Virus record (IMG/VR): IMGVR_UViG_3300031992_000010
Reading direction: 5' to 3' (one strand)
DNA length: 23,634 nt
From: a virus
Lineage: Duplodnaviria > Heunggongvirae > Uroviricota > Caudoviricetes
The notes under the pieces are model-generated. The model did not search any database. It was not told the origin of the DNA and worked only from the letters and a program-made list of their open reading frames with translations. Shown piece after piece: positions 586 through 23,634 of the stretch. How positions within the stretch are numbered: the stretch's first letter is position 1; every line of letters starts with the position of its first letter. Both the position numbers and the translations under genes were made by a program.

Positions 586-1353
586 ATGAAGTATACAAGT
601 TTAAAAATTTCAACGACCGGGCTTGACCGGATGAAGGATGAATTATTAAGAATCGTCATAATTGAATTTGAGGTGGACGACTCCCTCAAGCCATATCAGG
701 TCAAGGTTGTCCAACAACACGATATATTTATTAAACCGAAGGTGGACTTTGAGGTTGATCCGGAATACAATTCCTTTACGAAGGAGGATGTGCTGGAAAA
801 AGGATATGAATTTACCCCACAGGTTTCGAAGGCGATAGCAAAATACATTGAAGGTAAAAATCTCACAGGTTTCAATGTCGACAATTTCGATATATGTTTC
901 CTATATGAATACTATAAACGAAATGGGTTTACCCTCGACCTATCCGAAACAAAAACATTTGATACAATGTTGATGGATATTAAATTATATCCAAGAAATT
1001 TCGAAGGCATATATAAAAGATATACCGGTCGGCAAATAGAACCTGAAAAAACAAAGGATTCATTATTTGTGGCCCAATCAAATATGGACATATTTGCGGT
1101 GGAATTTATTCAATGCCGGGAACAGCAATTCTTACAGGATATTGGCCTCCCGGTATTATCACCGGAGCATTTCGTCGAGGATATAGGCGGTAGTATAGTA
1201 TTTTGTAACGGCAAATACCAACACAAGGATGTCGCCGATATTTGTAAACAGGACCCCCAATATATCAAATGGATATTCTCGGTGGCAACCGACCGGACGA
1301 AGGAGACCATAAAAAATTATTTTTATAAAAAATATCCACAAACCCTAAAATAA
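586..1353 (+). CDS. DnaQ/DEDDh 3'-5' exonuclease-like protein with ExoX-like C-terminal domain, probably catalytically inactive
   Basis: ExoI-like KISTTGLD (normally DxETTGLD), ExoII GFNVDNFDICFL, DTM motif, C-terminal NGKYQHKDVADICKQDPQYIKWI. Confidence 0.75.
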   Translation: MKYTSLKISTTGLDRMKDELLRIVIIEFEVDDSLKPYQVKVVQQHDIFIKPKVDFEVDPEYNSFTKEDVLEKGYEFTPQVSKAIAKYIEGKNLTGFNVDNFDICFLYEYYKRNGFTLDLSETKTFDTMLMDIKLYPRNFEGIYKRYTGRQIEPEKTKDSLFVAQSNMDIFAVEFIQCREQQFLQDIGLPVLSPEHFVEDIGGSIVFCNGKYQHKDVADICKQDPQYIKWIFSVATDRTKETIKNYFYKKYPQTLK

Positions 1354-1413
1354 TGGATTAAATATGGTATTCTTTATATGATAGTTTAAGTTTAATTTTA
1401 ATATTTATTTTTA

Positions 1414-2535
1414 ATGACAAAAAATTTTATTCAGCATTGTGAGCCTACGGAAATCGAATGGCCACAATACCACAGTGAACAGGAAAGAATTAAATTATTT
1501 TCCGAAAAGTTCAAAAACACACCATTGGAGGATGCGTTCTCCGAGGTTTATGGTGTAAAAATCAATATTACAAACGATGAGGATAAGGATATAATCAATT
1601 CGTTACCTCGTGAGGTTGAATTAGGTGAAACCATCGCGGTTCGAATCCTTTCCGTCGGCAAGGAAAGCATCGGCATTGATGCCTATAATGTAAAGGAGAA
1701 CATCGTTTGCAAAAACAACCTCTACAAATACAAAAAGTTCCAATCACCTCTACATGAGCCAATCGAGTGGTCCGCAAAGGTTATCAAAAAGGATAACAAA
1801 CAGGTAATTGTGGATATTATGGAACCAATGATTGATTCCTGGAAGGAGGAAATCGCCCTACATCCATTGGATCAATATAACGTTGCGGAGGACAAGTCAA
1901 CCTACGCGGTTGGATTAAAATTAATTAGCGGAGGATATTTATGTAAGGTTTGTGTTCCGGAGGTAAGTGAATTTATTGGTGAGGATTATTTCATCGATGC
2001 GTTCATTCCGGGTTCCCAAATCGTATTAAATATCGAAAATGATTTTTCACGTTGGGAAGGCAAATCGGTACGTGTATTCGTAACGAACTTTATGCCATCA
2101 CCTTCGGATCCAAGTAAAATGGTCGCCGTTTGTTCCGTTAAGAAGTATTTACAGCATATTGGTAATGTAAATATGATTAATATGTTCAAACATTATACCG
2201 ATGGCGTGGATGGAACGGAATGGTGGAAATCATTCACAAAACAACCAATTGGTGGTATCGTAACCGGAGTTATCAACTCAAGCAAACGTTGCGGTGTATT
2301 TGTGGAACTACCTGATTATCATATTACCGGTATGGTAATGTTGAAACCACAGGAAATTGTTAAGTATGCGCCACAAATGAAAATCAACGTAAACCTTACC
2401 GGATTCGACCTGCCAACATATTACAACGATATGGTTGGACAGGTACAACACGGTGTGCCATACGTATTCAATGACATTAATCCAAATGTATTGGAAAGAT
2501 GTGATTTGAAACCGGTACTTACGATTGCCGATTAA
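1414..2535 (+). CDS. Ribosomal protein S1-like OB-fold RNA-binding protein
   Basis: AFIPGSQI (cf. RpsA AFLPGSQI), GIVTGV..CGVFVEL..ITGMV S1 repeat, N-terminal ELGETIAVRILSV. Confidence 0.7.
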   Translation: MTKNFIQHCEPTEIEWPQYHSEQERIKLFSEKFKNTPLEDAFSEVYGVKINITNDEDKDIINSLPREVELGETIAVRILSVGKESIGIDAYNVKENIVCKNNLYKYKKFQSPLHEPIEWSAKVIKKDNKQVIVDIMEPMIDSWKEEIALHPLDQYNVAEDKSTYAVGLKLISGGYLCKVCVPEVSEFIGEDYFIDAFIPGSQIVLNIENDFSRWEGKSVRVFVTNFMPSPSDPSKMVAVCSVKKYLQHIGNVNMINMFKHYTDGVDGTEWWKSFTKQPIGGIVTGVINSSKRCGVFVELPDYHITGMVMLKPQEIVKYAPQMKINVNLTGFDLPTYYNDMVGQVQHGVPYVFNDINPNVLERCDLKPVLTIAD

Positions 2536-3167
2536 ACCTTTCCGGGATAATCGAAATCGATTTCAATATCATTATATTTAAGACGGAGGTCAAACGTTTC
2601 GGCTTGACGCTCCGCTCTTGAATATGAAAAATCAATACCATCGAGGGAATCAATTAAAATATCACGTAATATGATTTTACAGGTTACTTCCCCAAGTTCA
2701 TTCAATATAAAAATCATAAGGTCGTCATCCGGCTGCACCGCTGGTGCCTTTGATTGTTTTATAAGGATGGTTTCGTATAACATTAAATAATTATAAAGGC
2801 CGACATTCATTCTAAACGTTACGGAAATGGTATCCTCAATAAGATTAAGTGTATTTGCCGGAGATATGTATTTTTGGGCCTTACTTGGTTCAATACCTTG
2901 CCCACGCAAATCCTCACGTCTTTGTAATCCATTAAAATTATTTCCGCCGTGTTGTTGTTGCTCCGCAATCAAATCACTTATACCCGGAAAATGAAAACCT
3001 TGAATGGATTCATTGAGATAATCAATTGGTGTTGTGATTACATTCGTATTTTCATCCAGGACCTTTTGATACTTTTCGGTAACCGATGGAGGTAGGAATG
3101 TTTTATCGAATGAAATACGAAATAAATCATAACGTGGGGATAACGATAAGGATATTGAAGTTGGCAT
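2532..3167 (-). CDS. Putative tail tube terminator/completion protein (T4 gp3-like tube fold)
   Basis: FPGIS, ISVTFRMNVGLYNY and IDSLDGIDFSY...FDLRLKYNDIEI resemble the gp3/gp19 pattern; size of about 210 aa fits. Confidence 0.5.
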   Translation of the reverse strand: MPTSISLSLSPRYDLFRISFDKTFLPPSVTEKYQKVLDENTNVITTPIDYLNESIQGFHFPGISDLIAEQQQHGGNNFNGLQRREDLRGQGIEPSKAQKYISPANTLNLIEDTISVTFRMNVGLYNYLMLYETILIKQSKAPAVQPDDDLMIFILNELGEVTCKIILRDILIDSLDGIDFSYSRAERQAETFDLRLKYNDIEIDFDYPGKV

Positions 3168-3204
3168 TCTATAAATATTTTTTAAAAAAATAATATCGGT
3201 AAAA

Positions 3205-3236
3205 ATTAAATTTTAATATGAAACTTATTATATTAA
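3205..3236 (+). promoter_or_regulatory. Putative promoter ATTAAA-N18-TATATTAA for the que operon
   Basis: Consensus match ending about 20 nt upstream of queD. Confidence 0.7.
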
Positions 3237-3255
3237 CCATAAATAATTTTTAATT

Positions 3256-3870
3256 ATGCTAATTACAAAAATTTTCAATGTTGAATCGGCTCACATAGTA
3301 CGAAACTGTACAAGTGAACGCTGCAGTCACTCAATACACGGCCACAGTGCGGTGATTGAGGTAACATTTGAGGCAAAAGGATTGGATAACGCCCAAATGG
3401 TTATGGATTTCGGATTGATGAAGAATGAAATCAAATCCTTCATCGATGGTATGGATCATTGTTATTTACTATGTGATCGGGACAAGGATGAGTTTAGAAA
3501 ATTTATAAAGGAAAATTGTGACCGATGGATAGAGTTACCATTCAATCCAAGTGCGGAAATGCTTTCGATGTTTATATATTATGGCATAACAAAAATATTG
3601 GAATCCATAAAATTTTCAAATGGTGAGAAAAATGTATCGGTTCATTCGGTCAAATACCACGAAACAAAATCCGGTTCGGCCACCTGTTTTAAGGACGATA
3701 TGTTGGATATATGGAATCCATTGGTTGATAAACGTGGCGATTTCGAAATCAATTATAGCCCGGCGGTGGTACGTGATTGGAATTCACCTGAAATGGAGAA
3801 TATATTTATTAATGGAAAGGATGCCGTTATTTTTACGGATGAAATAAAACAACAAATAAAACTTTATTAA
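3256..3870 (+). CDS. queD: 6-carboxy-5,6,7,8-tetrahydropterin synthase
   Basis: SAHIVRNCTSERCSHSIHGHS, MVMDFG, DH, NPSAE and YHET motifs; adjacent to queE. Confidence 0.92.
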   Translation: MLITKIFNVESAHIVRNCTSERCSHSIHGHSAVIEVTFEAKGLDNAQMVMDFGLMKNEIKSFIDGMDHCYLLCDRDKDEFRKFIKENCDRWIELPFNPSAEMLSMFIYYGITKILESIKFSNGEKNVSVHSVKYHETKSGSATCFKDDMLDIWNPLVDKRGDFEINYSPAVVRDWNSPEMENIFINGKDAVIFTDEIKQQIKLY

Positions 3871-3871
3871 T

Positions 3872-4666
3872 ATGACTCCAATTTGCGATTTATTTGTAAG
3901 CATTCAAGGGGAGGGAAAATATATGGGTGTACCTTCCATTTTTATTAGGGTAAGTGGGTGTAACCTACGTTGTGTATTCAAGGGCTCAATTTGTGATACA
4001 CCCTATAGTTCATTCAAGCCGGAGGAAACCAAATATACGGTACAGGAGGTTATTGATTTTGTGAAAAACAATCCAAAAATCAGCCACGTGGTAATTACCG
4101 GGGGTGAGCCGCTCCTATATGCGAAGGATGAGGATTTCCGTACAATTATCCGGGAATTGAATAAAATGAATAAATTTATCACCATAGAAACCAATGGAAC
4201 CAAACCAATGTTGGATCCATTAAATTTCAAAATTGGTTTATATAGTGTCAGCCCCAAACTATCCACGTCGGTTTGCCCAAAGGAATTATGTGAAAAATAT
4301 GGTATCCCGGAACAAATGGCGGAACGACATAACAAGGAACGTATTAATATAGACGTTCTTACAAATATCGCCTTATATTCAAACGATTACCAATTCAAGT
4401 TTGTTTATAGTGGTCCGGAATGTGTGGATGAAATAGATGAAATATATAGACGTATGGCAAATAAAATCTCCGGTGAGGAGGAATTTACCCGTATGTTTTA
4501 TTTCAATAACCATCCAAATAAGCATACAATGCTAATGCCGGAGGGAATCACAAACGAATCGATTGCCGAAAAAGGAAAGGAAATCACGGACATATGTATT
4601 TCCCGAGGATGGAGTTATACCGATCGTTTACATATACGTTTATTTGGTGACAAAAGAGGTTTTTAA
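3872..4666 (+). CDS. queE: 7-carboxy-7-deazaguanine synthase (radical SAM)
   Basis: FVSIQGEG, GCNLRC..CDT, ITGGEPLL, IETNGT, SVSPKL, RLHI. Confidence 0.95.
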   Translation: MTPICDLFVSIQGEGKYMGVPSIFIRVSGCNLRCVFKGSICDTPYSSFKPEETKYTVQEVIDFVKNNPKISHVVITGGEPLLYAKDEDFRTIIRELNKMNKFITIETNGTKPMLDPLNFKIGLYSVSPKLSTSVCPKELCEKYGIPEQMAERHNKERINIDVLTNIALYSNDYQFKFVYSGPECVDEIDEIYRRMANKISGEEEFTRMFYFNNHPNKHTMLMPEGITNESIAEKGKEITDICISRGWSYTDRLHIRLFGDKRGF

Positions 4667-4667
4667 G

Positions 4668-4826
4668 GTGGAATCGGAGGAAATTAAAAGAAATGGGTTT
4701 ATTGAGGAGGTAACGAAAAAACAACTTCTTTACGTCCGAAAACTCAATTCCATCCTAAAAAGTTCGGAGGAAAATTTTAAACGATGGGATAAAAAATGGG
4801 AGGATTTAAGACAAGGTAATAAATAA
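4668..4826 (+). CDS. Small hypothetical protein (52 aa, GTG start)
   Basis: Fills the gap between queE and folE2 exactly. Confidence 0.4.
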   Translation: MESEEIKRNGFIEEVTKKQLLYVRKLNSILKSSEENFKRWDKKWEDLRQGNK

Positions 4827-4839
4827 AAATATAATTAAC

Positions 4840-5850
4840 ATGGGTAAAAATAGTGATATTAAGGTCAAGGACCTAACAAGGGGCTATGATGAAAACTTCA
4901 AGCCAACACAGGAGTATTTGGATTCAATGCCGGATTTACAAAACGGGGAATATATGGATATTCCAATCGAATTTGTAGGTATTCATAATTTTCACATCCC
5001 TATTCGCATACGTGAAAAGAATGGCGGTACACAGGAGGTTATGGCATCAATTACCGGTGAGGTTAGTTTAGGTGCCCAAAAACGAGGTATTAATATGTCA
5101 CGTATCATTCGTACCTTTTATAAATCAAAGGATGACATATTCGATATCAAAAACCTTGAAAAGGTATTGACCGACTATAAAAAGGATCTCGACACCTTCG
5201 ATGCACATATCCTTATGAATTTCAAGTATCGAATTTGGCAGGATGCATTGAGATCCACAAAAATTGTGGAACACGACGAATACAACCACACCATTAAGGA
5301 GGAGGTACCCGAAGGTGGATGGCAATACTATAATATCACCTTCGATGTAAATATGGATAAAATCGGTGAGGTGAAAAGAATTCTTTGGGTGGATTTTGTA
5401 TATAGTTCCGCATGCCCCTGTTCAACCGAATTATCCCTCCACGCGGCATTAAACCGTGGTGTATATGGCATTCCACACTCACAACGTAGTATTGCCCGCC
5501 TTGGATTGGATTTTAATATTCCGGAGGATGGTAACATGTTGTGGATTGAGGATGTTGTTGATATGTGCCGTGAGGCGTTGACGACCGAGACGTTGGTATT
5601 TTGTAAACGTCAGGATGAACAGGCATTTGCAGAGAAAAATGGTGCCCAGCCAAAGTTTGTGGAGGATGCGATAAGATTTTTGGGTCATAGATTAAATGAA
5701 TGTCCATTAATTGTGGATTACAAAATCATTTGTTCCCATCAGGAATCATTACATTCACACGATGCGGTTGCGGTAATGACCAAGGGTAAAAAGGATAGTT
5801 GTTTTAATCACCACGTAAGTTTGGGTGAGTGGCAATCAATGATGGTTTAG
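4840..5850 (+). CDS. folE2: GTP cyclohydrolase I type B
   Basis: PDLQN, VGI, RGINMSR, YSSACPCS, PHSQRS, KRQDE, KFVED, ESLHSHDA. Confidence 0.93.
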   Translation: MGKNSDIKVKDLTRGYDENFKPTQEYLDSMPDLQNGEYMDIPIEFVGIHNFHIPIRIREKNGGTQEVMASITGEVSLGAQKRGINMSRIIRTFYKSKDDIFDIKNLEKVLTDYKKDLDTFDAHILMNFKYRIWQDALRSTKIVEHDEYNHTIKEEVPEGGWQYYNITFDVNMDKIGEVKRILWVDFVYSSACPCSTELSLHAALNRGVYGIPHSQRSIARLGLDFNIPEDGNMLWIEDVVDMCREALTTETLVFCKRQDEQAFAEKNGAQPKFVEDAIRFLGHRLNECPLIVDYKIICSHQESLHSHDAVAVMTKGKKDSCFNHHVSLGEWQSMMV

Positions 5851-5860
5851 TACGGAAATG

Positions 5861-5892
5861 GGGGTTGATATTAAAAAATATATCAATTCCCC
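5861..5892 (+). terminator. Stem-loop after folE2
   Basis: GGGGTTGATAT...ATATCAATTCCCC inverted repeat followed by a T-rich tract. Confidence 0.55.
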
Positions 5893-5925
5893 TTATTTTA
5901 TATAAAAATAGATGAATATGCCTTT

Positions 5926-7518
5926 ATGGAAACCCCGGATATAAATGAATTAAATAATAGTATACATATCAAAAACGAGGAGTTTTGTAAAACAAAATAT
6001 CCTGAATTTACCGGGTTTTTGGAAAATAAATATCCAAACATTACACATATTGAACGTTTATATATGTATATACATCCATCCTGTCAACCAAAATGTGAAA
6101 CTTGTGGGGGGAGTGTTAAATTTATAAATTTCAATAAAGGATATCGGAAATTTTGTTGTCCGGGTTGTGTATCGAAAAATTCCAATATAAAGAACAAAAA
6201 AATCAATACCTGTCGTTTAAATTATGGTGTGGATAATCCATCATATTCAAATGATATATTGATTAAAAAGCAAACAACAATGCTTGAACGATATGGTGTT
6301 GATAATACGTCAAAATTAAAGGATAACCGAAAAAAGGCAAAACAAACGATGTTGGAACGATATGGGGTTGATAATGTAATGAAACTAAATTCGGTAAAGG
6401 AAAAAATCAAATCAAACAATAATAAAAAATACGGTGTTGATTGGCCTTTATCGTTGGATGTGGTTAAGGAAAAATCAAATATTACATATATCCAAAAATA
6501 TGGGGGGAGAGGTAATGCGTCCGATATTATAAGACAAAAAATGAAAAATACCTGTTATGAAAAATATGGGGATTTAAATTTTAGTAATCGGGAAAAGGCA
6601 AAACAAACGATGCTGGAACGATATGGTGAATTGGCCTACCATCACTATTGTATTCCGAAAGATACAAATATTGAAATTTTTGTACAAAATATATTGGATA
6701 AATATAATATAAATTATATAAAAAATAACAGGTCCATTCTCAAAGGTCGTGAATTGGATATATATATTCCTTCACATAAATTTGCAATTGAGATAAATGG
6801 ATGCCATTGGCATAGTGTAAAATTTAAACCAAAAAAATATCATTTTGAAAAATTCAAGGAATGTTTAAATGAGGATATACAACTTCTAACCATTTGGGAT
6901 GATCAAATCGTTGGAAATCCGAAATTGATTGAATCGATTATATTATCAAAACTTGGTATATATAATGAAAGAATATATGCAAGAAAATGTGATGTGCGAT
7001 ATGTTTCACCGGGTGATAGTTTAAAATTTTTATCGGAAAATCACATACAGGGGGGAGTGAATAGTAGTGTGCGTTTGGGTTTATATTGCAATGATGAACT
7101 CATAAGTATAATGACATTTGGAAAAAAACGTAAATCATTAAATCAAAAAGGACAGGATGGGGAGTGGGAATTGTATAGGTTTTGTAATAAAATAAATACA
7201 CAGGTTATTGGTGGTGCATCAAAATTATTAAAATATTTTATAAGAAACCATAAACCGGCATTGGTTGAATCCTTTTCAAGTAATGATATAAGTATGGGAA
7301 ATTTATATAAAACATTATCATTCAAAAAAAATGGTGAAAGTTTATCATATTGGTATGTTAAGGATTATAAAAGATACCATAGATTTAACTTTACAAAAAA
7401 ACGTTTGGTTGGGATGGGATTTGACCCATCAAAAACCGAACAACAAATTATGTCGGAAAATAGATATGAATGTATATATGATAGTGGGCAAACAAAGTGG
7501 ATTCTTGAATGTAAATAA
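5926..7518 (+). CDS. Hef-like homing endonuclease: Zn ribbon, YGxxN repeats, Vsr/DUF559-like PD-(D/E)xK domain and C-terminal GNAT/Mom-like domain
   Basis: CETC..FCCPGC; repeated ERYGVDN; ELDIYIPSHKFAIEINGCHWH; ELYRFC..VIGGASKLLKYF..IYDSGQ. Confidence 0.78.
   Translation: METPDINELNNSIHIKNEEFCKTKYPEFTGFLENKYPNITHIERLYMYIHPSCQPKCETCGGSVKFINFNKGYRKFCCPGCVSKNSNIKNKKINTCRLNYGVDNPSYSNDILIKKQTTMLERYGVDNTSKLKDNRKKAKQTMLERYGVDNVMKLNSVKEKIKSNNNKKYGVDWPLSLDVVKEKSNITYIQKYGGRGNASDIIRQKMKNTCYEKYGDLNFSNREKAKQTMLERYGELAYHHYCIPKDTNIEIFVQNILDKYNINYIKNNRSILKGRELDIYIPSHKFAIEINGCHWHSVKFKPKKYHFEKFKECLNEDIQLLTIWDDQIVGNPKLIESIILSKLGIYNERIYARKCDVRYVSPGDSLKFLSENHIQGGVNSSVRLGLYCNDELISIMTFGKKRKSLNQKGQDGEWELYRFCNKINTQVIGGASKLLKYFIRNHKPALVESFSSNDISMGNLYKTLSFKKNGESLSYWYVKDYKRYHRFNFTKKRLVGMGFDPSKTEQQIMSENRYECIYDSGQTKWILECK
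6332..6626 (+). repeat. 34-nt direct repeat (6332-6365 and 6593-6626, one mismatch) encoding KAKQTMLERYG
   Basis: aaaaggcaaaacaaacgatg(t/c)tggaacgatatgg occurs twice within the YGxxN repeat array. Confidence 0.85.
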
Positions 7519-7532
7519 TTTATATAAAACTA

Positions 7533-7551
7533 CCAAACCAATTTGGTTTGG
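7533..7551. terminator. Perfect inverted repeat CCAAACCAA-T-TTGGTTTGG, possible terminator
   Basis: Intergenic palindrome after the endonuclease gene, followed by TTATTATTT. Confidence 0.5.
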
Positions 7552-7585
7552 ATTATTATTTAGTAAATGTTAAAACCTGATTTAT

Positions 7586-8020
7586 ATGGAGTTAAATAAA
7601 ATTAAAAAGGAACTTCGGTGGGTTAAAATGAGCGATTTGAAACCATACGGCGCCAATCCTCGTCATAACAATAAATCCGCGAAGGTTGTGGCCGAATCAA
7701 TTAAGGCGTATGGGTATATAAATCCCATAATAGTGACGGAGGATTTAATGATCCTTGCAGGACATACACGTTTTAAGGCATTAAAATTATTGGGTGTTGA
7801 GGAAATTGATGTATTGGTAATCAAGGGATTAACCGAACAGCAAATCCACGGATTCGTAATTGCCGACAATCGTGTGGGTGAATTTTCGACGTGGAATTTC
7901 TCCGCTATGGATAGATTGTTATCAAAAAAGGAAATCGCTTCGGATACCTTGAAAAACTTGGGTATGATGTCGGTTGCCGATAATAAAAAGGAATTGGAGG
8001 ACCTTATAAAGGATGCATAA
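7586..8020 (+). CDS. ParB/Srx N-terminal domain protein
   Basis: LKPYGANPRHN, SIKAYGYINPIIV, ILAGHTRFKA, IADNR; overlaps the start of the next gene. Confidence 0.88.
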   Translation: MELNKIKKELRWVKMSDLKPYGANPRHNNKSAKVVAESIKAYGYINPIIVTEDLMILAGHTRFKALKLLGVEEIDVLVIKGLTEQQIHGFVIADNRVGEFSTWNFSAMDRLLSKKEIASDTLKNLGMMSVADNKKELEDLIKDA

Positions 8021-8846
8021 ACTTGTTTTTGGACTTGGAGGGGGATTTGTATATTCCTGCGGTGGTAACGGTAAATGGAAGACGGTACTACCCAAACTAT
8101 TAAATACATTCGATAACTGTGTGCTTATATCCACCGTGGATATGTCGCAGGTGGCGGCGAAGGTAATATATGACACGGTAGGACAGGAACGACTTTATTT
8201 GGATAGTGGTGGTTTTACCTTATATAAGAAACAGGTAAAACTTGGAGCCGATAATCCGGAGTTCCACAAACTATGTGATAAAATGAAGGCCCGGTTTATG
8301 AAGATGTTATCGATAGCGAAATATAATGAGGTATTCGAACTCGATAACGAATATTTCCGCAAGGATCCGGATATGTTATCCCCCAAAAATTATTGCCGGG
8401 AGGAGGTAAAGGCCTTAACAGGTTCATACCCTACACCGGTATTTAAGATGCATCAGGGATTTGAATATTGGAAACGATTATGCGAAAGTGATTTATATCC
8501 ACGCCTTGCCATTGGTGGTTTGGCCCAAACACGTGAATGGAATACCCACAGGGATGAGTTGACGAAAATGATGAGATATGCGAGGGATTGTGGTAAAAAG
8601 GTCCACCTATTGGGGTGTCAAAATGTGGAAAGTTTCAAAATGGTCCAACCTGATACCGTGGATTATTCAATATTCCAATATGCAATCAATTTAGGCTTCG
8701 TCAATGAGGAACATCCGGAGTTAACAACCTACGCCGAAAAGAAACAACAATGTGTATTATATGCGTTGGCGAGGGCGAAATCCCGAAGTTTCCTATATGA
8801 TAATGATTGTAAAATTTTAAACGAAGGCGAGGACTTTAAGGAATAA
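8013..8846 (+). CDS. dpdA: TGT-fold DNA 7-deazaguanine transglycosylase (DpdA-like)
   Basis: LYLDSGGFT, ELD, PVFKMHQG, LAIGGL, VHLLG and TVDYS motifs of the TGT/DpdA fold; lies with queD, queE and folE2. Confidence 0.78.
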   Translation: MHKLVFGLGGGFVYSCGGNGKWKTVLPKLLNTFDNCVLISTVDMSQVAAKVIYDTVGQERLYLDSGGFTLYKKQVKLGADNPEFHKLCDKMKARFMKMLSIAKYNEVFELDNEYFRKDPDMLSPKNYCREEVKALTGSYPTPVFKMHQGFEYWKRLCESDLYPRLAIGGLAQTREWNTHRDELTKMMRYARDCGKKVHLLGCQNVESFKMVQPDTVDYSIFQYAINLGFVNEEHPELTTYAEKKQQCVLYALARAKSRSFLYDNDCKILNEGEDFKE

Positions 8847-8872
8847 TCACAAATAAAAAAAACAATATAAAC

Positions 8873-8906
8873 AAAGGTCCGGGATTAAATATTTCGGACC
8901 TTTTTT
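8873..8906 (+). terminator. Intrinsic terminator overlapping a promoter
   Basis: AAAGGTCCGGGAT...ATTTCGGACCTTTTTT. Confidence 0.75.
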
Positions 8907-8915
8907 GTATATTAA
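8884..8915 (+). promoter_or_regulatory. Putative promoter ATTAAA-N18-TATATTAA
   Basis: Consensus match. Confidence 0.65.
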
Positions 8916-8959
8916 TGTGTAATAATGTTCCGATTATTATTGTAAAAAAGGTTATTACA

Positions 8960-9774: not shown

Positions 9775-9786
9775 AAATTGCAAGGT

Positions 9787-10104: not shown

Positions 10105-10105
10105 T

Positions 10106-10681: not shown

Positions 10682-10695
10682 AAAAAATATTATAA

Positions 10696-13411: not shown

Positions 13412-13421
13412 AAATCTTTAA

Positions 13422-14645
13422 ATGAGACTTTCCGAATTTATTAAGGAATCATTATTAAACGAAGGTGGACAATCCGGTCACCTAAAACATATAATCGATT
13501 ATAGTGAGTTAACATTCGACCAAATAAAGGGCATACTTTATTCCCTATTTAATGGTAAAATACAGGATATCACCGAGAAAATAGATGGAACCAATATACA
13601 GGCCTCGATGAATGATAATGATGAGGTTGTATTTGTAAGAAACAAAGGGGATTTGAATAGCGAACGTGGTGGTATGTTCGTACAGGATATGGTTACCAAG
13701 TGGTCCGGAAATCCAAAGGTACAGCAAACATTCGTTGAAAGTGGGAAAATTTTGGAGGAGTTATTCAAAAAGATAGGAAAACGATTCTTTAACCCGGATT
13801 CCAATACAAGAATATTCGCCAACTGTGAGTGTATGATTGAAGGTACCACCAACATTATGCCATACATTTCCTCGAAGGTAAACGTCCACGATTTGTGGGT
13901 ATATGAAAAAACACCATCCGGATGGGAATTGAAGGAAACCACCAAAAACGGCCTGAAAAAATTACAGGACGCTATGGAAGGAATGGATAACGTCCAAATA
14001 ACCCCGAATGTAATCGTTGACGTAACCGAAAAGGGTCAGGATGCACTGAAAAAATATATGAAGGATATAAATGACATATATAGGGCGGCCGGATTAAAAA
14101 CATCCTCAACAATAGAGGAATATAAGGAGGTTAGGTTTGCCGAATATATGGGCAAAAACGAATCGTGGTGGGAATCCAACCCGGAAGGCAAACATATTCT
14201 TTTTGAACGATTTATAAATCAGGATAAATCCGTGAATATCAGGGACATAAAGAAAATGTATCCGGATAATGTGGATGATATTACCCGGATTGATAAGAAT
14301 GGATACAAGGCCATTTATAAATTTGTTATGAATGACCTGGATACATTATTCCTCAAAATAGGTAATACAATAATAGATATGTGTTATGGTTTCATTAATT
14401 CCGGCGGTGAGGCGAAGGTTATTGCCGAGTTGGAGAAAAATCTTGAGGATGTAACGGCCGAAATAGAGGCAAACGGAAGTGAAAAGGCAAAAACAAAACT
14501 TGCCCAACAACTTGCCCGCCTTGCACAATTGGATAAATTGAATGCCACCGAAGGTATTGTATTTAGATATAAGGGAAGAATAATGAAATGTACGGGGGCG
14601 TTTGCACCTCTTAATCAGGCACTTGGAACAAGATTTGAAAAATAA
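13422..14645 (+). CDS. RNA/DNA ligase-superfamily nucleotidyltransferase (DUF6267-like)
   Basis: Motif I TEKIDG, motif III NCE, motif IIIa VHD, motif IV EGIVFR, motif V MKCTG. Confidence 0.65.
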   Translation: MRLSEFIKESLLNEGGQSGHLKHIIDYSELTFDQIKGILYSLFNGKIQDITEKIDGTNIQASMNDNDEVVFVRNKGDLNSERGGMFVQDMVTKWSGNPKVQQTFVESGKILEELFKKIGKRFFNPDSNTRIFANCECMIEGTTNIMPYISSKVNVHDLWVYEKTPSGWELKETTKNGLKKLQDAMEGMDNVQITPNVIVDVTEKGQDALKKYMKDINDIYRAAGLKTSSTIEEYKEVRFAEYMGKNESWWESNPEGKHILFERFINQDKSVNIRDIKKMYPDNVDDITRIDKNGYKAIYKFVMNDLDTLFLKIGNTIIDMCYGFINSGGEAKVIAELEKNLEDVTAEIEANGSEKAKTKLAQQLARLAQLDKLNATEGIVFRYKGRIMKCTGAFAPLNQALGTRFEK

Positions 14646-14655
14646 TTATATTAGG

Positions 14656-16047: not shown

Positions 16048-16064
16048 AAATAAGGATACGATAA

Positions 16065-16937: not shown

Positions 16938-16981
16938 AATTTATTCAATAAATTATTATATATAAAAAAAATAATTAAGAT

Positions 16982-17551: not shown

Positions 17552-17573
17552 TGGTACCCAAATACCTATTATT

Positions 17574-17605
17574 AAAAGGATTGAATGTTTATTCAATCCT
17601 TTTTT
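17574..17605 (+). terminator. Intrinsic terminator
   Basis: AAAAGGATTGAAT-GTTT-ATTCAATCCTTTTTT perfect stem. Confidence 0.85.
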
Positions 17606-17632
17606 ATTTTATATAAAAATACATTATATATA

Positions 17633-17833
17633 ATGCCTGCAAAATCAAAATCACAACAACGCCTATTCGGAATGGCCCTCGCCGTTCGTAGAGGTGAATT
17701 AAAACGTGGGGAGGTAAATGATGAGGTCCTTAATATAGTCGATTCCGATATGACGGATAAGGAAATAGAGGATTTCGCCTCAACATCACATAAAGGTTTG
17801 AAGGAACACCTACTCGAATCCCTAAATCATTGA
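17633..17833 (+). CDS. DUF3008-family small protein
   Basis: MPAKSKSQQRLFGMALAVRRGE...DSDMTDKEIEDFAST.HKGL pattern; start reassigned to ATG 17633. Confidence 0.75.
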   Translation: MPAKSKSQQRLFGMALAVRRGELKRGEVNDEVLNIVDSDMTDKEIEDFASTSHKGLKEHLLESLNH

Positions 17834-17913
17834 TTATCAGATAATTAAAAAATCAATATACCGGGAACGTATTATAATAGTAGATATTCAAAAAAAAAAA
17901 AATTAATAAAAAA

Positions 17914-19692
17914 ATGATTACTGAAACTTCACAAAACAATTTGGTCAGCATATTGAAGGAGGATCTTCACGTAACTGACCCTTACAAATTGAAATGGATG
18001 AGTCAATATGCACAAATCCACGAAGCAAGACAGGACAAAGGTTACGGTAGATTGTTAACGGAAGGTTTACAACCATACGCTGACAACGTATCGAAAAGCA
18101 TCTACGCAACTCCATTGAACACCGTAGGTATGGGTAACCCTATGGCTCCACTTGGTGTTCCAGGTCCTGATGGTTTTAACGCAAATGGCGGAAATGGAAC
18201 AGGCATTGGTAACACAGGTGCGGATTTCCATAATCCAAATTACCAAACAGGTAGTGGTGATATCCCTATGTCTACATTACCAATGGCATTGGAAGTAGCC
18301 GCTATGACAATCGGTTTGGAATTGGTTCCTATCGTTCCTGCAACTGGCCCTTGGCATATGTTGACTTGGATGGATACTCCATACGCCGGTGGTAAACTTG
18401 GAAAAATCAACGAAACTTCATTCGATGGTAAAGGTCCGGGTAGCGAAAACAAACCTATTTACATCACTGTTAATGCCGACTTCACATTTGGTTCTCCAAG
18501 TGAAAAGAAATTCATCCAAAAATATGACGAGGTAGTTGTAGAGGGTGAAGGTGGAACATTGAATGGTAAATTTATGGGATGGAACCGTTACAATGCCGAC
18601 ATTATTATCAAGGTTGAGGATTGCGGTGATGAGGAAACTTCAATCAGCGATGTATTCTCACAGGAGGCTGAAGTTACAATCAACTTCAAGGGTGGATCAA
18701 TCACTTCGGCAAAGGCAAAAATGCGTCCTGATCTTGTAGGTTCATATGGTAACCACCAACAAGGTTTCTCTAACTTCTTCGAGGATAGCGAGGATCCAAT
18801 GACAAGAGCACAAAACGAAACAGGTGTAGGTAATACAATCGGTGTTCGTATGTTCTCAAAATGGATCCAAATGGGTTCCTATGAAGTAACAGGTGCGGTA
18901 ACCCGCCAACAATTACAGGATATGCCTTTATATGGTGTTGATGTTGTAGGTAAGGTATTGGAGGCAATGCAAAACCAAATTTCACAGGAAATCAACAACC
19001 GTATCCTTGATAGAGTACGTAAATTGGGTGTAACCAACGCCGTTATTCAAAAGAAATACCAAAACGTTGACTTGAACTTGACTTTCGATAGCACCGAAAC
19101 AGGTTACAAGGATCTTACTGAATTTGTTGGTTCGGATAAATTCGTTGGTATTGATAACCAAAACAAGGCTGAAGGCTGGGGACGTGTAAAGGTAGCCGTG
19201 GATAATACAAACTATGAAAACTATATGACTCACCAACGTCGTATTTCATCACGTATTTTGGCTGCTAAAAACTTGATCGCCGTTACATCACGTCGTGGTG
19301 CAGGTAACTTCGTGGTAACAAACTCGCAAGTTGTAACTGCATTGCAGGATAACGCTCAATTCGTTCCTTGTCCAATGACTAACACATTCGTACAGGATAA
19401 CTCTAAATCAATTTACTTCGCAGGTTCATATGCCGGTACAAATGTTTACTGTGATCCTTACCAATTGTGGGATGACACACGTGTAACAGTTGGACGTAAA
19501 GGTACTGAAAACGAACCGGGTGTAATCTTTATGCCTTACATCCTTTGCGATACAATCCAAATTACCGCAGAAGGAACTATGGCTCCAAAATTGTTGTGTA
19601 ACTCACGTTTCGCATTACCTGATATCGGTTGGGCTCCTGAACAATCATACTTCACATTCCTAATCGATGGTGATGGCGCAGCAATAATCTAA
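17914..19692 (+). CDS. Major capsid protein (T4 gp23-like)
   Basis: LPMALEVAAMTIGLELVP, ISQEINNRI, RRGAGNFVV, GTNVYCDPY, VGRKG..PGVIFMPY, PK..SRFA; codon usage typical of a highly expressed gene; poly-A leader. Confidence 0.92.
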   Translation: MITETSQNNLVSILKEDLHVTDPYKLKWMSQYAQIHEARQDKGYGRLLTEGLQPYADNVSKSIYATPLNTVGMGNPMAPLGVPGPDGFNANGGNGTGIGNTGADFHNPNYQTGSGDIPMSTLPMALEVAAMTIGLELVPIVPATGPWHMLTWMDTPYAGGKLGKINETSFDGKGPGSENKPIYITVNADFTFGSPSEKKFIQKYDEVVVEGEGGTLNGKFMGWNRYNADIIIKVEDCGDEETSISDVFSQEAEVTINFKGGSITSAKAKMRPDLVGSYGNHQQGFSNFFEDSEDPMTRAQNETGVGNTIGVRMFSKWIQMGSYEVTGAVTRQQLQDMPLYGVDVVGKVLEAMQNQISQEINNRILDRVRKLGVTNAVIQKKYQNVDLNLTFDSTETGYKDLTEFVGSDKFVGIDNQNKAEGWGRVKVAVDNTNYENYMTHQRRISSRILAAKNLIAVTSRRGAGNFVVTNSQVVTALQDNAQFVPCPMTNTFVQDNSKSIYFAGSYAGTNVYCDPYQLWDDTRVTVGRKGTENEPGVIFMPYILCDTIQITAEGTMAPKLLCNSRFALPDIGWAPEQSYFTFLIDGDGAAII

Positions 19693-19713
19693 TTAACGGA
19701 AGTTTAATTTAAC

Positions 19714-19745
19714 AAAAAGGCCGGTCGAAGGATACGGCCTTTTTT
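19714..19745 (+). terminator. Intrinsic terminator after the major capsid gene
   Basis: AAAAAGGCCG...CGGCCTTTTTT. Confidence 0.8.
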
Positions 19746-19804
19746 ATTTCCCATAATTTTGAATTTATCCCGGGGAAAAATTATTATTTAATAAAAATTC
19801 CTAT

Positions 19805-21457
19805 ATGACAATAGATTATTCGAATATAATGGAGGCGGAGGAAATTAAAAACCTACCGGGCTACCATATAACGGAGGCATCCAAAAAGGACAACGAGAAT
19901 GAAAAAGAGGTGGAGGACAATATTGAGGATACCGGGAAAAAACAAAAGGAAAAGGCACAAAATAAGGATGTTTATGATGTTATTTATGCAAAGAATGATT
20001 ATACCAATATTTTCAAACATATAATCATTTTCACAAACAACCGCGATCCAAAGGAAAACAAAACATTGAAAAATCTTTACGATGCGGTGGATGAATTGAA
20101 AAAACATAAATGTCCGATAATCCCCGAATTACACGTATTCATAGCCGCGCAGGTAGTTGCCGACGAGGATGAAAAGGAAATTACAATTTCGGATGATAAA
20201 GGTGAATTTGTTATTAAGGAACAATCAAACCTTGATACATTAATATTCTCACGTCTTGGTGTTCAAGGTGAGGATGAATGTGAGCACATAGTAAACATTT
20301 TGGTCGACCGCGGTTTCCTTGTATTGAATCCCGTAAAATATAGTGAATTGGCATCCAATAAATATGAAACGGCCGTCCTATTGCAAAAAGGTGAAATACC
20401 ACAACCAAACTTTTGCCTTATGACAAAGGATGTTCTTTACGATGAGAAACTTTACCTTGATGCCATGAAGGAGGTTTATCCCGAATTTACCGGCGATGGC
20501 GATAAGGATGAAAAACTCCAATTTGTCATCAAGATTTTGGACGGACATGGTGGTACCGGTGTTGCCTTGATTGATGGCAAACGTATATTGGCAATATTCC
20601 AAATGATATTTGCAATCGACCCGGAACGTCAAATAATAGTTCAAAAGAAGGAGGAGGCCGATGGCGGTGATATCCGCGTCCACGTATTGACATTAAGAAA
20701 CAAACAGGTAATCCTTGCCGCCATGAAACGTATAAAAATTGCATCGGATTTCCGTTCAAACGTATCATTGGGCGCGGAGGCCGAACCTGTTAATTTGACG
20801 CCTGAACAGGAACAAATAGCATTGAAGGCCGCCAAAATATCAAAACTACCATGGTGTGCGGTGGATATAATGCCACTTGTAAAGGGGTCGAATAAGGAAT
20901 TGGGCGATAACGTTGTATTGGAACTAAATGCCTCACCGGGGACGAATGGTATAACGGACGTGATGAAGGAAAACTTCGTCAATATATTATTAAGCGAATT
21001 AAATGATCCGGGGGAATTTTACCTCCAAAATAAGGTGGCCGGATATGTGGAGGCCGCACAGGTCGTATTTGAGGACGGTGATGAACCTATATCGGTGCTT
21101 GCCAAACTTGATACCGGCAACGGTGCGAAGGCATCCCACATTGAGGTAGGTAAATATGAGGTAAATGATAAGAAGGTCTCATTCGAAATTAATGGAAAGA
21201 AATATTCCTTCGACATTGTGGATGAATCCCACGCAAAAACAGGGGATGAGGAACACAACCGCCCCGTAATCGAAATCAAGGAACTTACCGTTGGTTTACG
21301 TAAGGTACAAAACGTCCGTATGGCAATTGTCGAGGTCCGCGACAAATCAACCAATATGCTTATCAATCGTGACGTTCTTGCCAAGTTGGGTTATGTAATT
21401 TCATCAAACGAAACCCACCTATTGACGGAGGAAATGGAAAAGGTTAAAATAGTATAA
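19805..21457 (+). CDS. RimK-like ATP-grasp ligase fused to a retropepsin-like (RimB-type) protease domain
   Basis: ASNKY, VIKILDGHGGTGV, GGDIRV, FRSNVSLG, AVDI, LELNASPG; C-terminal AKLDTGNGA..H, RPV, MLINRD. Confidence 0.88.
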   Translation: MTIDYSNIMEAEEIKNLPGYHITEASKKDNENEKEVEDNIEDTGKKQKEKAQNKDVYDVIYAKNDYTNIFKHIIIFTNNRDPKENKTLKNLYDAVDELKKHKCPIIPELHVFIAAQVVADEDEKEITISDDKGEFVIKEQSNLDTLIFSRLGVQGEDECEHIVNILVDRGFLVLNPVKYSELASNKYETAVLLQKGEIPQPNFCLMTKDVLYDEKLYLDAMKEVYPEFTGDGDKDEKLQFVIKILDGHGGTGVALIDGKRILAIFQMIFAIDPERQIIVQKKEEADGGDIRVHVLTLRNKQVILAAMKRIKIASDFRSNVSLGAEAEPVNLTPEQEQIALKAAKISKLPWCAVDIMPLVKGSNKELGDNVVLELNASPGTNGITDVMKENFVNILLSELNDPGEFYLQNKVAGYVEAAQVVFEDGDEPISVLAKLDTGNGAKASHIEVGKYEVNDKKVSFEINGKKYSFDIVDESHAKTGDEEHNRPVIEIKELTVGLRKVQNVRMAIVEVRDKSTNMLINRDVLAKLGYVISSNETHLLTEEMEKVKIV

Positions 21458-21484
21458 AAATTCCATAACAATAATTTGTTTCGT

Positions 21485-21519
21485 AAAGGTGTTTTCGGAA
21501 AATTTCGGAAACACCTTTT
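21485..21519 (+). terminator. Intrinsic terminator
   Basis: AAAGGTGTTTTCGGAA...TTCGGAAACACCTTTT. Confidence 0.8.
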
Positions 21520-21603
21520 ATTTTGCATTTTAAGGTAGGTTTAAGGCATTTTCGTGTCAAAAATATATAATTTATAGGGTAATGTGAAAATCCCTCGTTA
21601 TAC

Positions 21604-21635
21604 ATTAAATTTTTAATGCAATTTTTATATATTAA
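21604..21635 (+). promoter_or_regulatory. Putative promoter ATTAAA-N18-TATATTAA
   Basis: Consensus match 20 nt upstream of the phosphoesterase ATG. Confidence 0.7.
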
Positions 21636-21655
21636 TTTGTAAAAATAAATTGAAT

Positions 21656-22222
21656 ATGTCGAATATCTTTTTTACATCGGATACCCACTTCGGACACAAT
21701 AAGGAATTTGTATGGAAGGCAAGGGGTTTTGAATCGGTTGAGGATCACGCGGAAGGATTGATTAAAAATTGGAATTCCGTGGTGAAACCGGATGATATTG
21801 TTTACCACTTGGGTGATATGAGTCTTTCCACCGAATATGAGGAAAAATCATTACAATGGGTTAAACGTTTGAATGGAAACATTTGCTGGATTGTTGGCAA
21901 CCACGATTCGGAACGACGTATTGGTGTGTTTGGAATGTGTGATAATATATTTGAAATACAAAAGGTTGAAATTTGTAAAATGGATAAATTCAACTTATAT
22001 CTATCACATTATCCAACAATTACATCCAATACCATCGGACACATCAAGGAGGCTCCAAAACCCAATTCGATATTTAACCTACATGGTCATACACACCAAT
22101 CAACGAACTTCAATCCGGAGCTACCATTAACCTGTTACCACGTTGGATTGGATTCACACAACCTTACACCGGTTTCATGGGAGGATGTCAGGAGGGATTT
22201 GTGGAATATAATTAATAGATAA
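21656..22222 (+). CDS. Calcineurin-like metallophosphoesterase
   Basis: TSDTHFGH, HLGD, GNHD, LSHYP, LHGHTH, VGLD; ATG at 21656. Confidence 0.92.
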   Translation: MSNIFFTSDTHFGHNKEFVWKARGFESVEDHAEGLIKNWNSVVKPDDIVYHLGDMSLSTEYEEKSLQWVKRLNGNICWIVGNHDSERRIGVFGMCDNIFEIQKVEICKMDKFNLYLSHYPTITSNTIGHIKEAPKPNSIFNLHGHTHQSTNFNPELPLTCYHVGLDSHNLTPVSWEDVRRDLWNIINR

Positions 22223-22233
22223 AAGGGTACAAT

Positions 22234-22557
22234 ATGAAAACTTTTGATGAATGGAAATCAATTCCTACAATTGAGGATGGTGATAAGGAATTTTACGGAA
22301 AATATGTGAAAATTCCGGATAACCAGCAATTTATTTGGAGGACTTCGCTTGCGGATTACACGATGATAAAGGTAAATGCCAAGTATGCAGTGATGTTGCG
22401 TCCGGATAGTGATAAATTTTATAGTAATATCTACCGTATCTACCGGGCACAAACGAAAACATTCAATGCGGTCTCCGATGGAGGTATTGTTGTGAAATAT
22501 AATACATTTGTGGAGGCTTTGGATGCCATTAAACAAATATATGACGATAAATTTTAA
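22234..22557 (+). CDS. Hypothetical protein
   Basis: 107-aa ORF in an operon with the phosphoesterase. Confidence 0.7.
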   Translation: MKTFDEWKSIPTIEDGDKEFYGKYVKIPDNQQFIWRTSLADYTMIKVNAKYAVMLRPDSDKFYSNIYRIYRAQTKTFNAVSDGGIVVKYNTFVEALDAIKQIYDDKF

Positions 22558-22562
22558 GGCAT

Positions 22563-22591
22563 AAAAAAAGGAACCTCGCGGTTCCTTTTTT
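22563..22591. terminator. Bidirectional intrinsic terminator
   Basis: AAAAAAAGGAACC-TCGC-GGTTCCTTTTTT between convergent genes. Confidence 0.88.
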
Positions 22592-22609
22592 GTTGTTTGA
22601 ATAAATGGT

Positions 22610-23634
22610 TTAGGCCAATTTATTTAGGTCCGCCGCAATCTTTGCCAACATGGCAAGTTTCACAGGGTCGTTTTTATATTGTTCCGTTAACTTTTCGATA
22701 CGTTCGCGGCGCGCCTTCATCTCATCCTCGTGAATGGATTCCAATACCTTTTGTTTTTCCTCCGCCGTTTTTGTTTCAACAACCTTTTCGATTTGTTCCT
22801 GATAGTGTTCCTTTAAATCGATATTTGTTTGGTCCTTGATGTATTTTAATGCCTCGACAACGTCGGCCTTCGCACCCCACGTGTTATTCAACGATTTGGT
22901 GTAAATTTCACCATTATGTTCGATAACAATAAATGAATCCTTTTGTGATTTGATTACACGGACATTATCAAGTACCGATATTGAATCAAAGTTTTCGACC
23001 AATTTTGCAAATGCCTCCAAAACGAATTGGTTTGCCTTTGTTGTGCGTGTTTGACCTAATGCCGTAATATACATTTCATTATGTTCACGCAATCCGGCGG
23101 TATTAAATTCCTCCTCCGAAACAACCTCACCCTTTTCGTTTAATTTTTTCTTTTTGCATTTATCGCATTCCTTTGCCTCATATACGTAGTTACCTACCTG
23201 TACCGAGAATGTATCGTTTTCATATTTAATATTATTGGATTCCAATAAACGGGAAACAGTGATAAAATCGTTTGAAACCGAATTTACATTCTCCTCCAAA
23301 ATACCATTTTCACCGATACTGAAAATCATTCCCAATACCTCAAAGAATGTTTTTCCATTATTCGATTCGAAGAATGATATAGGGGTGATCGCCGTATATT
23401 CCGGGGCGGATTCAACCAATGGAATATCCTTGAAAATTGATTTTGTGATACCACGGAACGCCTCACAAAACATAACATTCTTTAATGCCCCTGCCTTGAT
23501 GTATTTAACCACATCCTCCTCACTTTTACCTTCCAAAAGGTCCTCAACCTGTTTGCAGGCGTTTTTGTTAAGGTAATCAAATTTCGATGATGAGTTAAGA
23601 ATACTTTCACAGGCGGATGCGAGTTGCCAAGAAT
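22610..23634 (-). CDS. 5'-truncated protein, possibly prohead core/scaffold-like
   Basis: The frame is open to the window edge; many (L/I/V)-x-E-S sites and a charged C-terminal coiled coil. Confidence 0.55.
   Translation of the reverse strand, partial: SWQLASACESILNSSSKFDYLNKNACKQVEDLLEGKSEEDVVKYIKAGALKNVMFCEAFRGITKSIFKDIPLVESAPEYTAITPISFFESNNGKTFFEVLGMIFSIGENGILEENVNSVSNDFITVSRLLESNNIKYENDTFSVQVGNYVYEAKECDKCKKKKLNEKGEVVSEEEFNTAGLREHNEMYITALGQTRTTKANQFVLEAFAKLVENFDSISVLDNVRVIKSQKDSFIVIEHNGEIYTKSLNNTWGAKADVVEALKYIKDQTNIDLKEHYQEQIEKVVETKTAEEKQKVLESIHEDEMKARRERIEKLTEQYKNDPVKLAMLAKIAADLNKLA

Follow-up and report, generated by a model that had tools for sequence, protein, structure and literature searches.

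In Escherichia coli, Vsr acts in a pentamer context and leaves a modest genomic footprint. It drives CTAGG to CCAGG (PMC2715241). The DpdA of phage CAjan targets G in GA, GGC and GGT (PMC10484667, PMC7544227), and the work on bacterial DpdA-DpdB (PMC10164549) reports no mutational footprint. We analysed a stretch of 23,634 nucleotides (the window) from a rumen jumbo phage. The capsid protein of this phage is 30-35% identical to those of Lak and pT24/PAU phages, a likeness to the Lak-like megaphages, but the genome differs from theirs in its size (~204-210 kb), its use of code 11 and its 37% GC; nearer members of the family are 47-79% identical.

An earlier note on this DNA, made from the letters alone, had counted trinucleotides by hand in two short intervals, and our recount gave identical numbers.
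661-900, + strand: first interval; 12 AGG, 2 AGC, 0 AGA and 0 AGT
13981-14220, + strand: second interval; 9 AGG, 1 AGA, 0 AGC and 0 AGT
Over the whole window, the observed/expected ratios (O/E, both strands) are 0.51 for AG, 0.25 for AGA, 0.21 for AGC and 0.35 for AGT. The three depleted words (AGH) and their complements (DCT) thus stand at 0.21-0.35 of expectation on both strands, not on one only, and AGG (1.50) is tolerated, as had been claimed. CTAG and AGCT occur 0 and 2 times, and CAGA 4 times of ~160 expected (whole window, both strands). There is a matching excess of GGA (1.87), GGC (1.42) and GGT (1.58), which the note had overlooked. In 27 of the 28 genes the O/E lies between 0.08 and 0.43 for AGH and between 0 and 0.61 for DCT. 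The depletion persists under the codon-aware null model that the note had named as a check: with amino-acid-preserving codon shuffles, A|G codon junctions number 167 against 698 (ratio 0.24, z = -35) and phase-2 AGA 21 against 322. Codon usage is altered in the manner described. Among Lys, Glu and Gln codons that precede a GH codon, 97% end in G, which fits the proposed adjustment of codon pairs (AAG GAA, GAG GAT), and GCC, ACC and TCC are preferred (GCT/GCC 17/133, ACT/ACC 29/122, TCT/TCC 6/104), the opposite of CCT/CCC (59/18). In non-coding DNA of strain G001, the A:G ratio is 45:143 at xGA, 5:47 at xGC and 43:119 at xGT, compared with 776:156 at xAA. The bias is present in independently assembled strains and is therefore no assembly artefact. 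Reassignment of the genetic code is ruled out by long code-11 open reading frames and by an effect that extends to all frames, both strands and non-coding DNA. The depletion of AGA, AGC and AGT is confirmed as real.

The change can be assigned to one base of the word.
1-23634, both strands: genome-wide shift from A to G at the first base of [A/G]GH (in the complement, DCT to DCC), with AGG/CCT spared
At synonymous [A/G]GH sites the share of A is 3-7%, against ~75% elsewhere. At fourfold Pro, Val and Gly sites before GH, G was counted 274 times, where purging predicts 144 and pure conversion 389. SNPs were taken from assembled strains and polarised by a 93%-identical outgroup. Mutation from G to A at [G]GH was found at 6/1009 and 1/236 sites, against a background of 80/835 and 60/176 (p = 1e-21 and 3e-24), whereas A to G at [A]GH was found at 7/72 and 8/20 sites, against 128/2384 and 119/743 (p = 0.11 and 0.01). 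Among strains the former is thus 7-80-fold below background and the latter ~2-fold above it, though this rise reaches significance in just one of the three polarised sets. For the second G of GGH and for [G]GG, mutation rates lie close to background. A second, independent lineage from human gut (12 sequences) shows the same pattern, with G to A at [G]GH in 7/1222 against 45/1090 (p = 3e-9). In six shifted pairs, A at target sites undergoes transitions at 1.4-2.7 times the background rate, compared with 0.5-0.8 times for controls. In terms of the pyrimidine strand, the strain data show a context-specific loss of C to T and gain of T to C, as in Dcm/Vsr-type repair. Mutation of G:C to A:T at RGH is therefore strongly suppressed and that of A:T to G:C roughly doubled. 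We consider it very probable that this mutational asymmetry, which is context-specific and affects the first purine of 5'-RGH-3' in either strand, is the main source of the missing AGH words; as a consequence, synonymous and non-coding sites have drifted almost wholly to GGH.

The earlier note had offered avoidance of a DarT-type defence as one explanation. More generally, selection could act against AGA, AGC and AGT (TCT, GCT and ACT) under a host DNA-targeting defence such as a DarT-type ADP-ribosyltransferase, a nuclease or a restriction enzyme. Several observations agree with this. All three transition routes that create AGH run below background among strains (16-fold, ~5-fold and ~5-fold), net shifts at the middle and third bases are ~4-5-fold relative to controls, and CAGA is avoided via both routes (252/3), in addition to the near absence of CTAG and AGCT. 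Gly codons, too, are fitted better by purging than by conversion. Word selection is route-blind, however, and would remove the word equally by every synonymous route. Only CAGA comes near to this: the first-base route shows a ~55-fold shift, and AGH made by other routes is reduced at most 2-5-fold. AAG and GAG before A or T persist (451/100, 498/110, 412/92), and the Arg AGA:AGG ratio matches that of controls (0.78 versus 0.72-0.78). Destruction of AGH by G to A is not accelerated, and creation by transversion is not suppressed (8/933 versus 6/1384; 0.25 expected under 16-fold selection, p = 3e-10). Furthermore, in the human-gut lineage G005 the first-base shift is complete, and the middle base shows neither shift nor avoidance. 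The major capsid gene is an internal exception.
17914-19692, + strand: major capsid gene; 46 synonymous AGH/DCT sites versus 48 GGH
The AGH sites of this gene, which word selection would not be expected to leave in place, are mostly conserved across strains, and its DCT O/E is 0.80, above the range of all other genes; some of its A's are held by translational selection. Word selection as the main cause of the depletion is thus largely refuted, and we regard it as unlikely. As for the weaker, 2-5-fold loss of AGH via other routes, one part is a by-product and another is genuine word avoidance, a minor component that is strongest for CAGA, AGCT and CTAG, with CAGA foremost.

The other explanation in the note was G modification by a DpdA-like enzyme at AGH, with costly or mutagenic sites purged. 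Purging of modified G can occur, since canonical preQ0 phages mildly lose G at their own motifs. In this phage, though, the G of A[G]H is lost no faster than background (6.3% and 3.6% versus 9.6% and 34% among strains); what changes is instead the base before it, from A to G, with a gain of GGH. We find this explanation scarcely credible. The target of an enzyme could also be the A of AGH itself, within ordinary A:T pairs; deamination to inosine, or promiscuous exchange of A for a modified G, would then revert G to A mutants. The direction would be correct, and A at [A]GH outside the capsid gene does turn over quickly between strains (40% versus 8.7% background). To hide 94% of G to A changes at 1.3% divergence, however, reversion would have to run several hundred times above background. 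Direct action would also erase any A that arises by transversion, yet such A's occur at a normal rate, and direct action is incompatible with the 46 sites left in the capsid gene; we consider it very unlikely. Polymerase slippage, with A copied as though it were the G that follows, was discarded as a sole cause: AGG is spared and the suppression of G to A is unexplained. An excess of transversions at the first G of GGH (19/1074 versus 1/457; 9/1796 versus 0/898) had been considered as a trace of abasic base-exchange intermediates. It was dropped because unpolarised control pairs that lack the transglycosylase described below show a similar excess (1.3-3.7-fold, against 2.9-fold here).

Given the mutational asymmetry, we put at about even the chance that its agent is a candidate ParB-assisted DNA transglycosylase encoded at 7586-8846. 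The relevant genes are as follows.
3256-3870, + strand: QueD-like protein; some unshifted controls have it too
3872-4666, + strand: QueE-like radical SAM protein; unshifted controls have it too
4840-5850, + strand: FolE2 GTP cyclohydrolase; unshifted controls have it too
5926-7518, + strand: mobile DUF7487/Vsr-like/Mom-like gene, a passenger
7586-8020, + strand: ParB N-domain protein, 144 aa (PF02195); overlaps the start of the next gene by 8 nt
8013-8846, + strand: TGT/DpdA-like transglycosylase, 277 aa, TIM barrel with a GGLAQT pocket motif (phrog_887, E = 9e-15); candidate cause of the bias
The model of the TGT-like protein (pLDDT 93) predicts a TIM-barrel TGT fold. TGT entries come first in its Foldseek ranking, and it scores Z = 13.2-13.8 against aTGT, bTGT and DpdA (7ui4), values that unrelated TIM barrels equal. 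D64, D111 and D217 are invariant in 45 homologues and, by motif analogy (PMC10164549), would be the acid, base-binding and nucleophile Asp residues. Searches of the protein gave no Pfam, NCBIfam or PADLOC match and no solved structure matched by sequence; its nearest named Atlas cluster carries PF23859 (DpdA) on 29% of members. Like DpdA1 of CAjan and iggy, it is a predicted TGT-fold DNA base-exchange enzyme, encoded beside folE/queD/queE and with the same motif order, and like DpdA1 it would recognise short motifs, GGC and GGT among them, on the 3' side of the G that is exchanged. The phage gene is nevertheless very distant from CAjan DpdA (hhalign probability 1%, E = 0.048), and has a ParB partner. 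No QueC was found in the 64 kb seen of the ~210 kb genome, where FolE2, QueD and QueE are present. The phage protein has an invariant Lys145 where CAjan DpdA has His, and several carriers of the ParB and TGT pair hold a separate canonical DpdA as well. The CAjan and iggy genomes, for which preQ0 motifs have been measured, show a mild shift at those motifs toward A, the opposite sign. From sequence, the pair would share three catalytic Asp, a GGhsbb-type pocket and a ParB-superfamily partner with bacterial DpdA-DpdB (Salmonella Montevideo, PDB 7ui4; PMC10164549), but its partner is a bare ParB N-domain and it is phage-borne, with no DpdC or restriction module. By analogy, it may also resemble the ParB-activated phage T-dioxygenases, in which a small ParB homologue activates a sequence-selective, post-replicative base-modifying enzyme; those enzymes perform thymine oxidation (PMC13229309).

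The distribution of the pair follows that of the shift within the Lak-related family. All 11 carriers are shifted toward G, some marginally, and none of the 8 non-carriers is (log2 GH shift -0.2 to -5.4 versus -0.06 to +1.35; p = 1e-5, or 7e-4 against the four nearest controls), although the lineages are non-independent and four of the non-carriers form one distant clade. This final test used the pooled GH shift because the TAG/CAG avoidance that is ordinary in bacteria inflates a score based on the lowest value among 5' contexts; loci L281 and L282 were left out, their bacterial bins being AG-poor themselves. In a quick capsid tree, the shift appears in at least four separate clades with unshifted sisters. 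Two lineages were noted as shifted before they were found to be carriers, and two loci retrieved by the TGT alone were both shifted. The pair is the sole module common to shifted genomes and missing from four control genomes; the ParB gene co-occurs with the TGT and is adjacent to it in further loci. The flanks are not the same from one lineage to the next (C[G]G, Y[G]GH, D[G]GH), consistent with a drifting enzyme specificity. Little or no shift was seen in the carriers G012 (two intact copies, -0.4), G041, G042, L028/L029, L279 and Campylobacter phage CC_R7, and recent insertion of the pair is shown only for CC_R7. The human-gut lineage L330, a possible non-carrier, is strongly shifted. An early reading from raw dinucleotide O/E, that DpdA homologues lack the bias, was reversed by the synonymous-site analysis. 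The link to a DpdA-like gene drawn in the earlier note is therefore supported by comparison, in that family carriers are shifted and complete non-carriers, the relatives in which an equal bias would have spoken against it, are not; it does not extend to every carrier. QueD, QueE and FolE are ruled out as markers of the bias, since controls carry them. The Vsr/Mom-like gene was rejected as a cause: it is absent at the same position in the equally biased strain L176, and homologues occur in unshifted controls.

The main rival to the pair is host repair or polymerase bias. The same directional bias could come from Vsr- or glycosylase-type T:G to C:G repair, supplied by the host or the rest of the genome, or from context-dependent fidelity of the phage polymerase, with the pair as a correlated passenger. 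The protected base on the pyrimidine strand is always the second C of CC, a typical Dcm/HpaII-type target, and removal of T from T:G, a well-known chemistry, accounts for both rate changes. The sign and logic are those of E. coli Vsr at CTAGG: a context-specific T:G to C:G bias with less C to T, more T to C and CT to CC at an internal C (PMC2715241). Unlike that system, the phage uses a trinucleotide context, covers about one-fifth of synonymous transition sites and has converted them almost fully. Some TGT-less gut bacteria have AG-poor genomes. Their pattern differs from that of the phage, however, with AGG depleted and GG unenriched; TGT-less small-genome Clostridia show TAG/CAG shifts, and in one (AG O/E 0.54-0.59) AGG is also depleted. 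The phage records searched, among them 257 kb of G002 and G003 and nine near-complete records, yielded no Vsr/methyltransferase pair and no C5-methyltransferase, UDG/MUG or HhH-GPD glycosylase; their only Vsr matches are mobile DUF7487 endonucleases, present in controls too. The shift also comes and goes with the pair among sister capsid clades. We therefore regard this rival as possible but rather unlikely.

Our best reading, with a probability of roughly 0.45, is that mismatch resolution or fidelity at G*GH favours G:C in a sequence-specific manner, most likely through the ParB and TGT pair. The pair would put a 7-deazaguanine in place of the first G of GGH (preQ0, or CDG should QueC really be missing), and transition mismatches at the first position (T:G, U:G or A:C) would be avoided or resolved toward G:C. 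If a mismatch became G:C always rather than half the time, A to G would rise ~2-fold and G to A would nearly vanish, in agreement with the strain data. Because active sites of the TGT family recognise guanine, they would not be expected to remove A or T, which argues against the pair as agent.

DNA modifications are known to raise mutation, as 5-methylcytosine does, or to be selected against. We found no published description of a genome shift of this kind. If our reading is true, a phage base-exchange system that lowers G to A 10-80-fold and raises A to G at the motif it targets would link modification and mutation in a new way, and target motifs (C[G]G, Y[G]GH, D[G]GH) could be predicted from sequence alone for an uncharacterised, widespread transglycosylase subfamily. 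Even if the repair rival is right, trinucleotide-wide, G:C-biased repair on phage DNA was not found described in the literature searched. Extreme k-mer depletion in phages need not signal avoidance of a defence. We tentatively suggest that a mobile phage ParB and transglycosylase pair may be a sequence-specific, mutation-biasing device that fixes transition mismatches at RGH as G:C by exchange of the first purine, and that it may, more than once, have remodelled codon usage and word content in several lineages of gut phages, leaving a motif that can be read from the genome sequence.

The window belongs to a T4-like jumbo phage (code 11, 37% GC) that occurs in sheep and cattle gut data. Contigs of its strains reach 204-210 kb; 64 kb of strain G001 and pieces of about 20 kb from other strains were read. 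The relevant features are:

3256-8846: queD, queE, folE2, a mobile DUF7487 gene, a ParB N-domain gene (7586-8020) and a TGT-like gene (8013-8846)
17914-19692: Gp23 capsid gene, 30-35% identity to Lak-type phages

AGA, AGC and AGT (together AGH) are scarce on both strands, with observed/expected ratios of 0.25, 0.21 and 0.35, while AGG stands at 1.50. The earlier note's manual counts of these words were reproduced exactly in both windows, and the bias it described persists in a codon-aware null model: a protein-preserving codon shuffle gave 698 A|G junctions against 167 observed (z = -35). The depletion extends to all genes and non-coding DNA and recurs in independent assemblies. It is not family-wide, since AG observed/expected is 0.85-1.25 in most of ~120 capsid-related loci. 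CTAG (absent), AGCT (2 copies) and CAGA (4) are also rare on both strands of the window, as are CATG (0.21) and GATC (0.44), both absent from the relative L033; this scarcity is likely separate restriction-site avoidance.

The depletion is real, and conversion of AGH to GGH describes it better than avoidance of AGH (probability roughly 0.85). A/(A+G) is 0.18-0.28 before GA, GC and GT and 0.62-0.76 before every other dinucleotide, GG being normal; an excess is seen for GGA, GGC and GGT but not for GGG. Lys, Glu and Gln codons end in G in 97% of cases before a GH codon vs 35% before GG. The third base of Pro codons is A 0.01, C 0.09, G 0.67, T 0.23 before GH, and A 0.60, C 0.09, G 0.12, T 0.19 before A. 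At fourfold sites in the 64 kb, 274 G were observed, where purging predicts 144 and pure conversion 389; the lost A's become mostly, not exclusively, G, although Gly codons are closer to the purging prediction. AGH formed by other routes is far less affected: before A or T, AAG and GAG are still common, Arg AGA:AGG is 0.78, as in unshifted control genomes, and the calculated net shift against controls is ~55-fold by the first-base route and about 4-5-fold by the others. Part of this residue is a by-product, such as Leu TTR to CTR after C. CAGA is the sole word strongly depleted by both routes.

The conversion is still running. Among three strains 1.2-1.4% apart, polarised with an outgroup at 6.7%, synonymous G>A at [G]GH (scored base in brackets) was found at 6/1009 sites vs 80/835 in the background, and on the deeper branch at 1/236 vs 60/176. 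A>G at [A]GH was 7/72 and 8/20 vs 128/2384 and 119/743. A separate human-gut lineage (12 sequences) also suppresses G>A (7/1222 vs 45/1090). We infer that transition mismatches are resolved toward G:C, which would raise A>G roughly two-fold and nearly abolish G>A. Mutation at the second G of GGH is normal; the word GGH is thus not being preserved as such. Transversions creating AGH occur at the normal rate, which argues against strong word selection; together with the 4-5-fold against ~55-fold routes, this makes DarT-type or other word-level defence avoidance, proposed earlier, improbable as the main cause. The same transversions argue against the fast reversion of A:T pairs that direct editing of A implies, leaving editing highly improbable. 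Purging of modified AG, also proposed earlier, is scarcely credible: A[G]H shows no elevated G>A, so AGH is not actively shed. The capsid gene retains 46 synonymous AGH sites, mostly conserved (codons GCT, ACT, TCT, GTA, GAA), which we read as translational selection resisting the mutational push. A G>A hot spot where G precedes C (31-56% vs 12-24%) occurs in the window species and controls alike.

Converted sequence includes mobile and strain-specific genes. The DUF7487/Vsr-like/Mom-like gene (5926-7518; 29% GC), without counterpart at that position in strain L176, is nearly wholly converted (A at 3 sites, G at 43), as are genes inserted specifically in L176; such genes therefore circulate inside the clade. 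A 30-gene tRNA cluster (G001 47321-52981, locus L174) includes Lys-CTT, Glu-CTC, Leu-CAA and Ser-GGA, which decode AAG, GAG, TTG and TCC, codons raised by the shift. The window's strain and L167 carry a MATCAP-domain gene past the window end (L031:19328-20470), which is deleted in G001, L168 and L170.

As the driver of the conversion, the ParB + TGT pair is the leading candidate, proposed tentatively. At least four separate capsid clades show the shift, each with unshifted sisters and lineage-specific flanks. Of all modules in the genomes compared, only this pair is both common to shifted genomes and absent from four controls, which are largely complete, carry queD/queE/folE and in 3/4 cases have a canonical DpdA. 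Within the family, the log2 change of A vs G at synonymous targets (negative toward G) is -0.2 to -5.4 in 11 carriers, two of whose lineages are putative carriers, and -0.06 to +1.35 in 8 non-carriers; the lineages are not independent and the weakest carriers lie scarcely under zero. The TGT-like protein has a TIM-barrel fold whose top matches include TGT and DpdA, keeps the three catalytic Asp and has a GGLAQT motif resembling a preQ0-type pocket (PMC10164549). Within the TGT/DpdA superfamily it belongs to a ParB-coupled subfamily that is uncharacterised. Both DpdA (PMC10164549) and phage T-dioxygenases (PMC13229309) have known ParB helpers. The DpdA of phage CAjan targets G in GA, GGC and GGT (PMC10484667), so modification of the first G of GGH is plausible.

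The DpdA link of the earlier note thus fits the family comparison, but several carriers show slight or no shift, and recent insertion is demonstrable only for Campylobacter phage CC_R7. A guanine-specific pocket alone does not account for T:G or A:C resolution. Another repair or polymerase bias is possible, if rather unlikely. On the pyrimidine strand the second C of CC is protected, as in Dcm/Vsr repair (PMC2715241), and the bias acts like very short patch repair, a likeness of action rather than of demonstrated membership; no C5 methyltransferase, stand-alone Vsr or glycosylase was found in the phage records searched, which cover part of the window's genome. Some small-genome Clostridia lacking TGT are AG-poor too, but their pattern differs. 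One ~1 Mb Eubacteriales bin (G047; C7, C12, C33 = L290, L309, L310) has AG observed/expected 0.54-0.59 with AGG also depleted, and one MutS-family match (791 aa). A transversion excess at target G was dropped as support, being not specific.

The TGT carriers L028 and L029 shift oppositely, C[G]G moving toward A by about +3 log2 (CG observed/expected 0.35-0.37). TGT paralogues P0219, P0255 and P0263 all lie on the same contigs (92,223, 129,523 and 68,932 long), and G012 has two TGT copies. We found no literature report of a GGH-type mutational footprint in phages. CAjan (L275) and iggy (L276), both with measured preQ0 motifs, show a mild shift toward A at those motifs, so ordinary preQ0 insertion does not yield the GGH footprint. 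Over 1-50000, [G]AC and [G]AG shift by +0.8 to +1.8 log2 in both; [G]GC shifts by +1.3/+1.5 in CAjan and +0.1/+0.2 in iggy, which has no GGC motif. Canonical DpdA motifs too may be legible from composition. CC_R7 (PQ092953.1), the only carrier in the GenBank phage collection, has the pair at L277:47257-48502 (58% identity), a position where its relatives (89-93% identity) lack it, and offers ready material for biochemistry.
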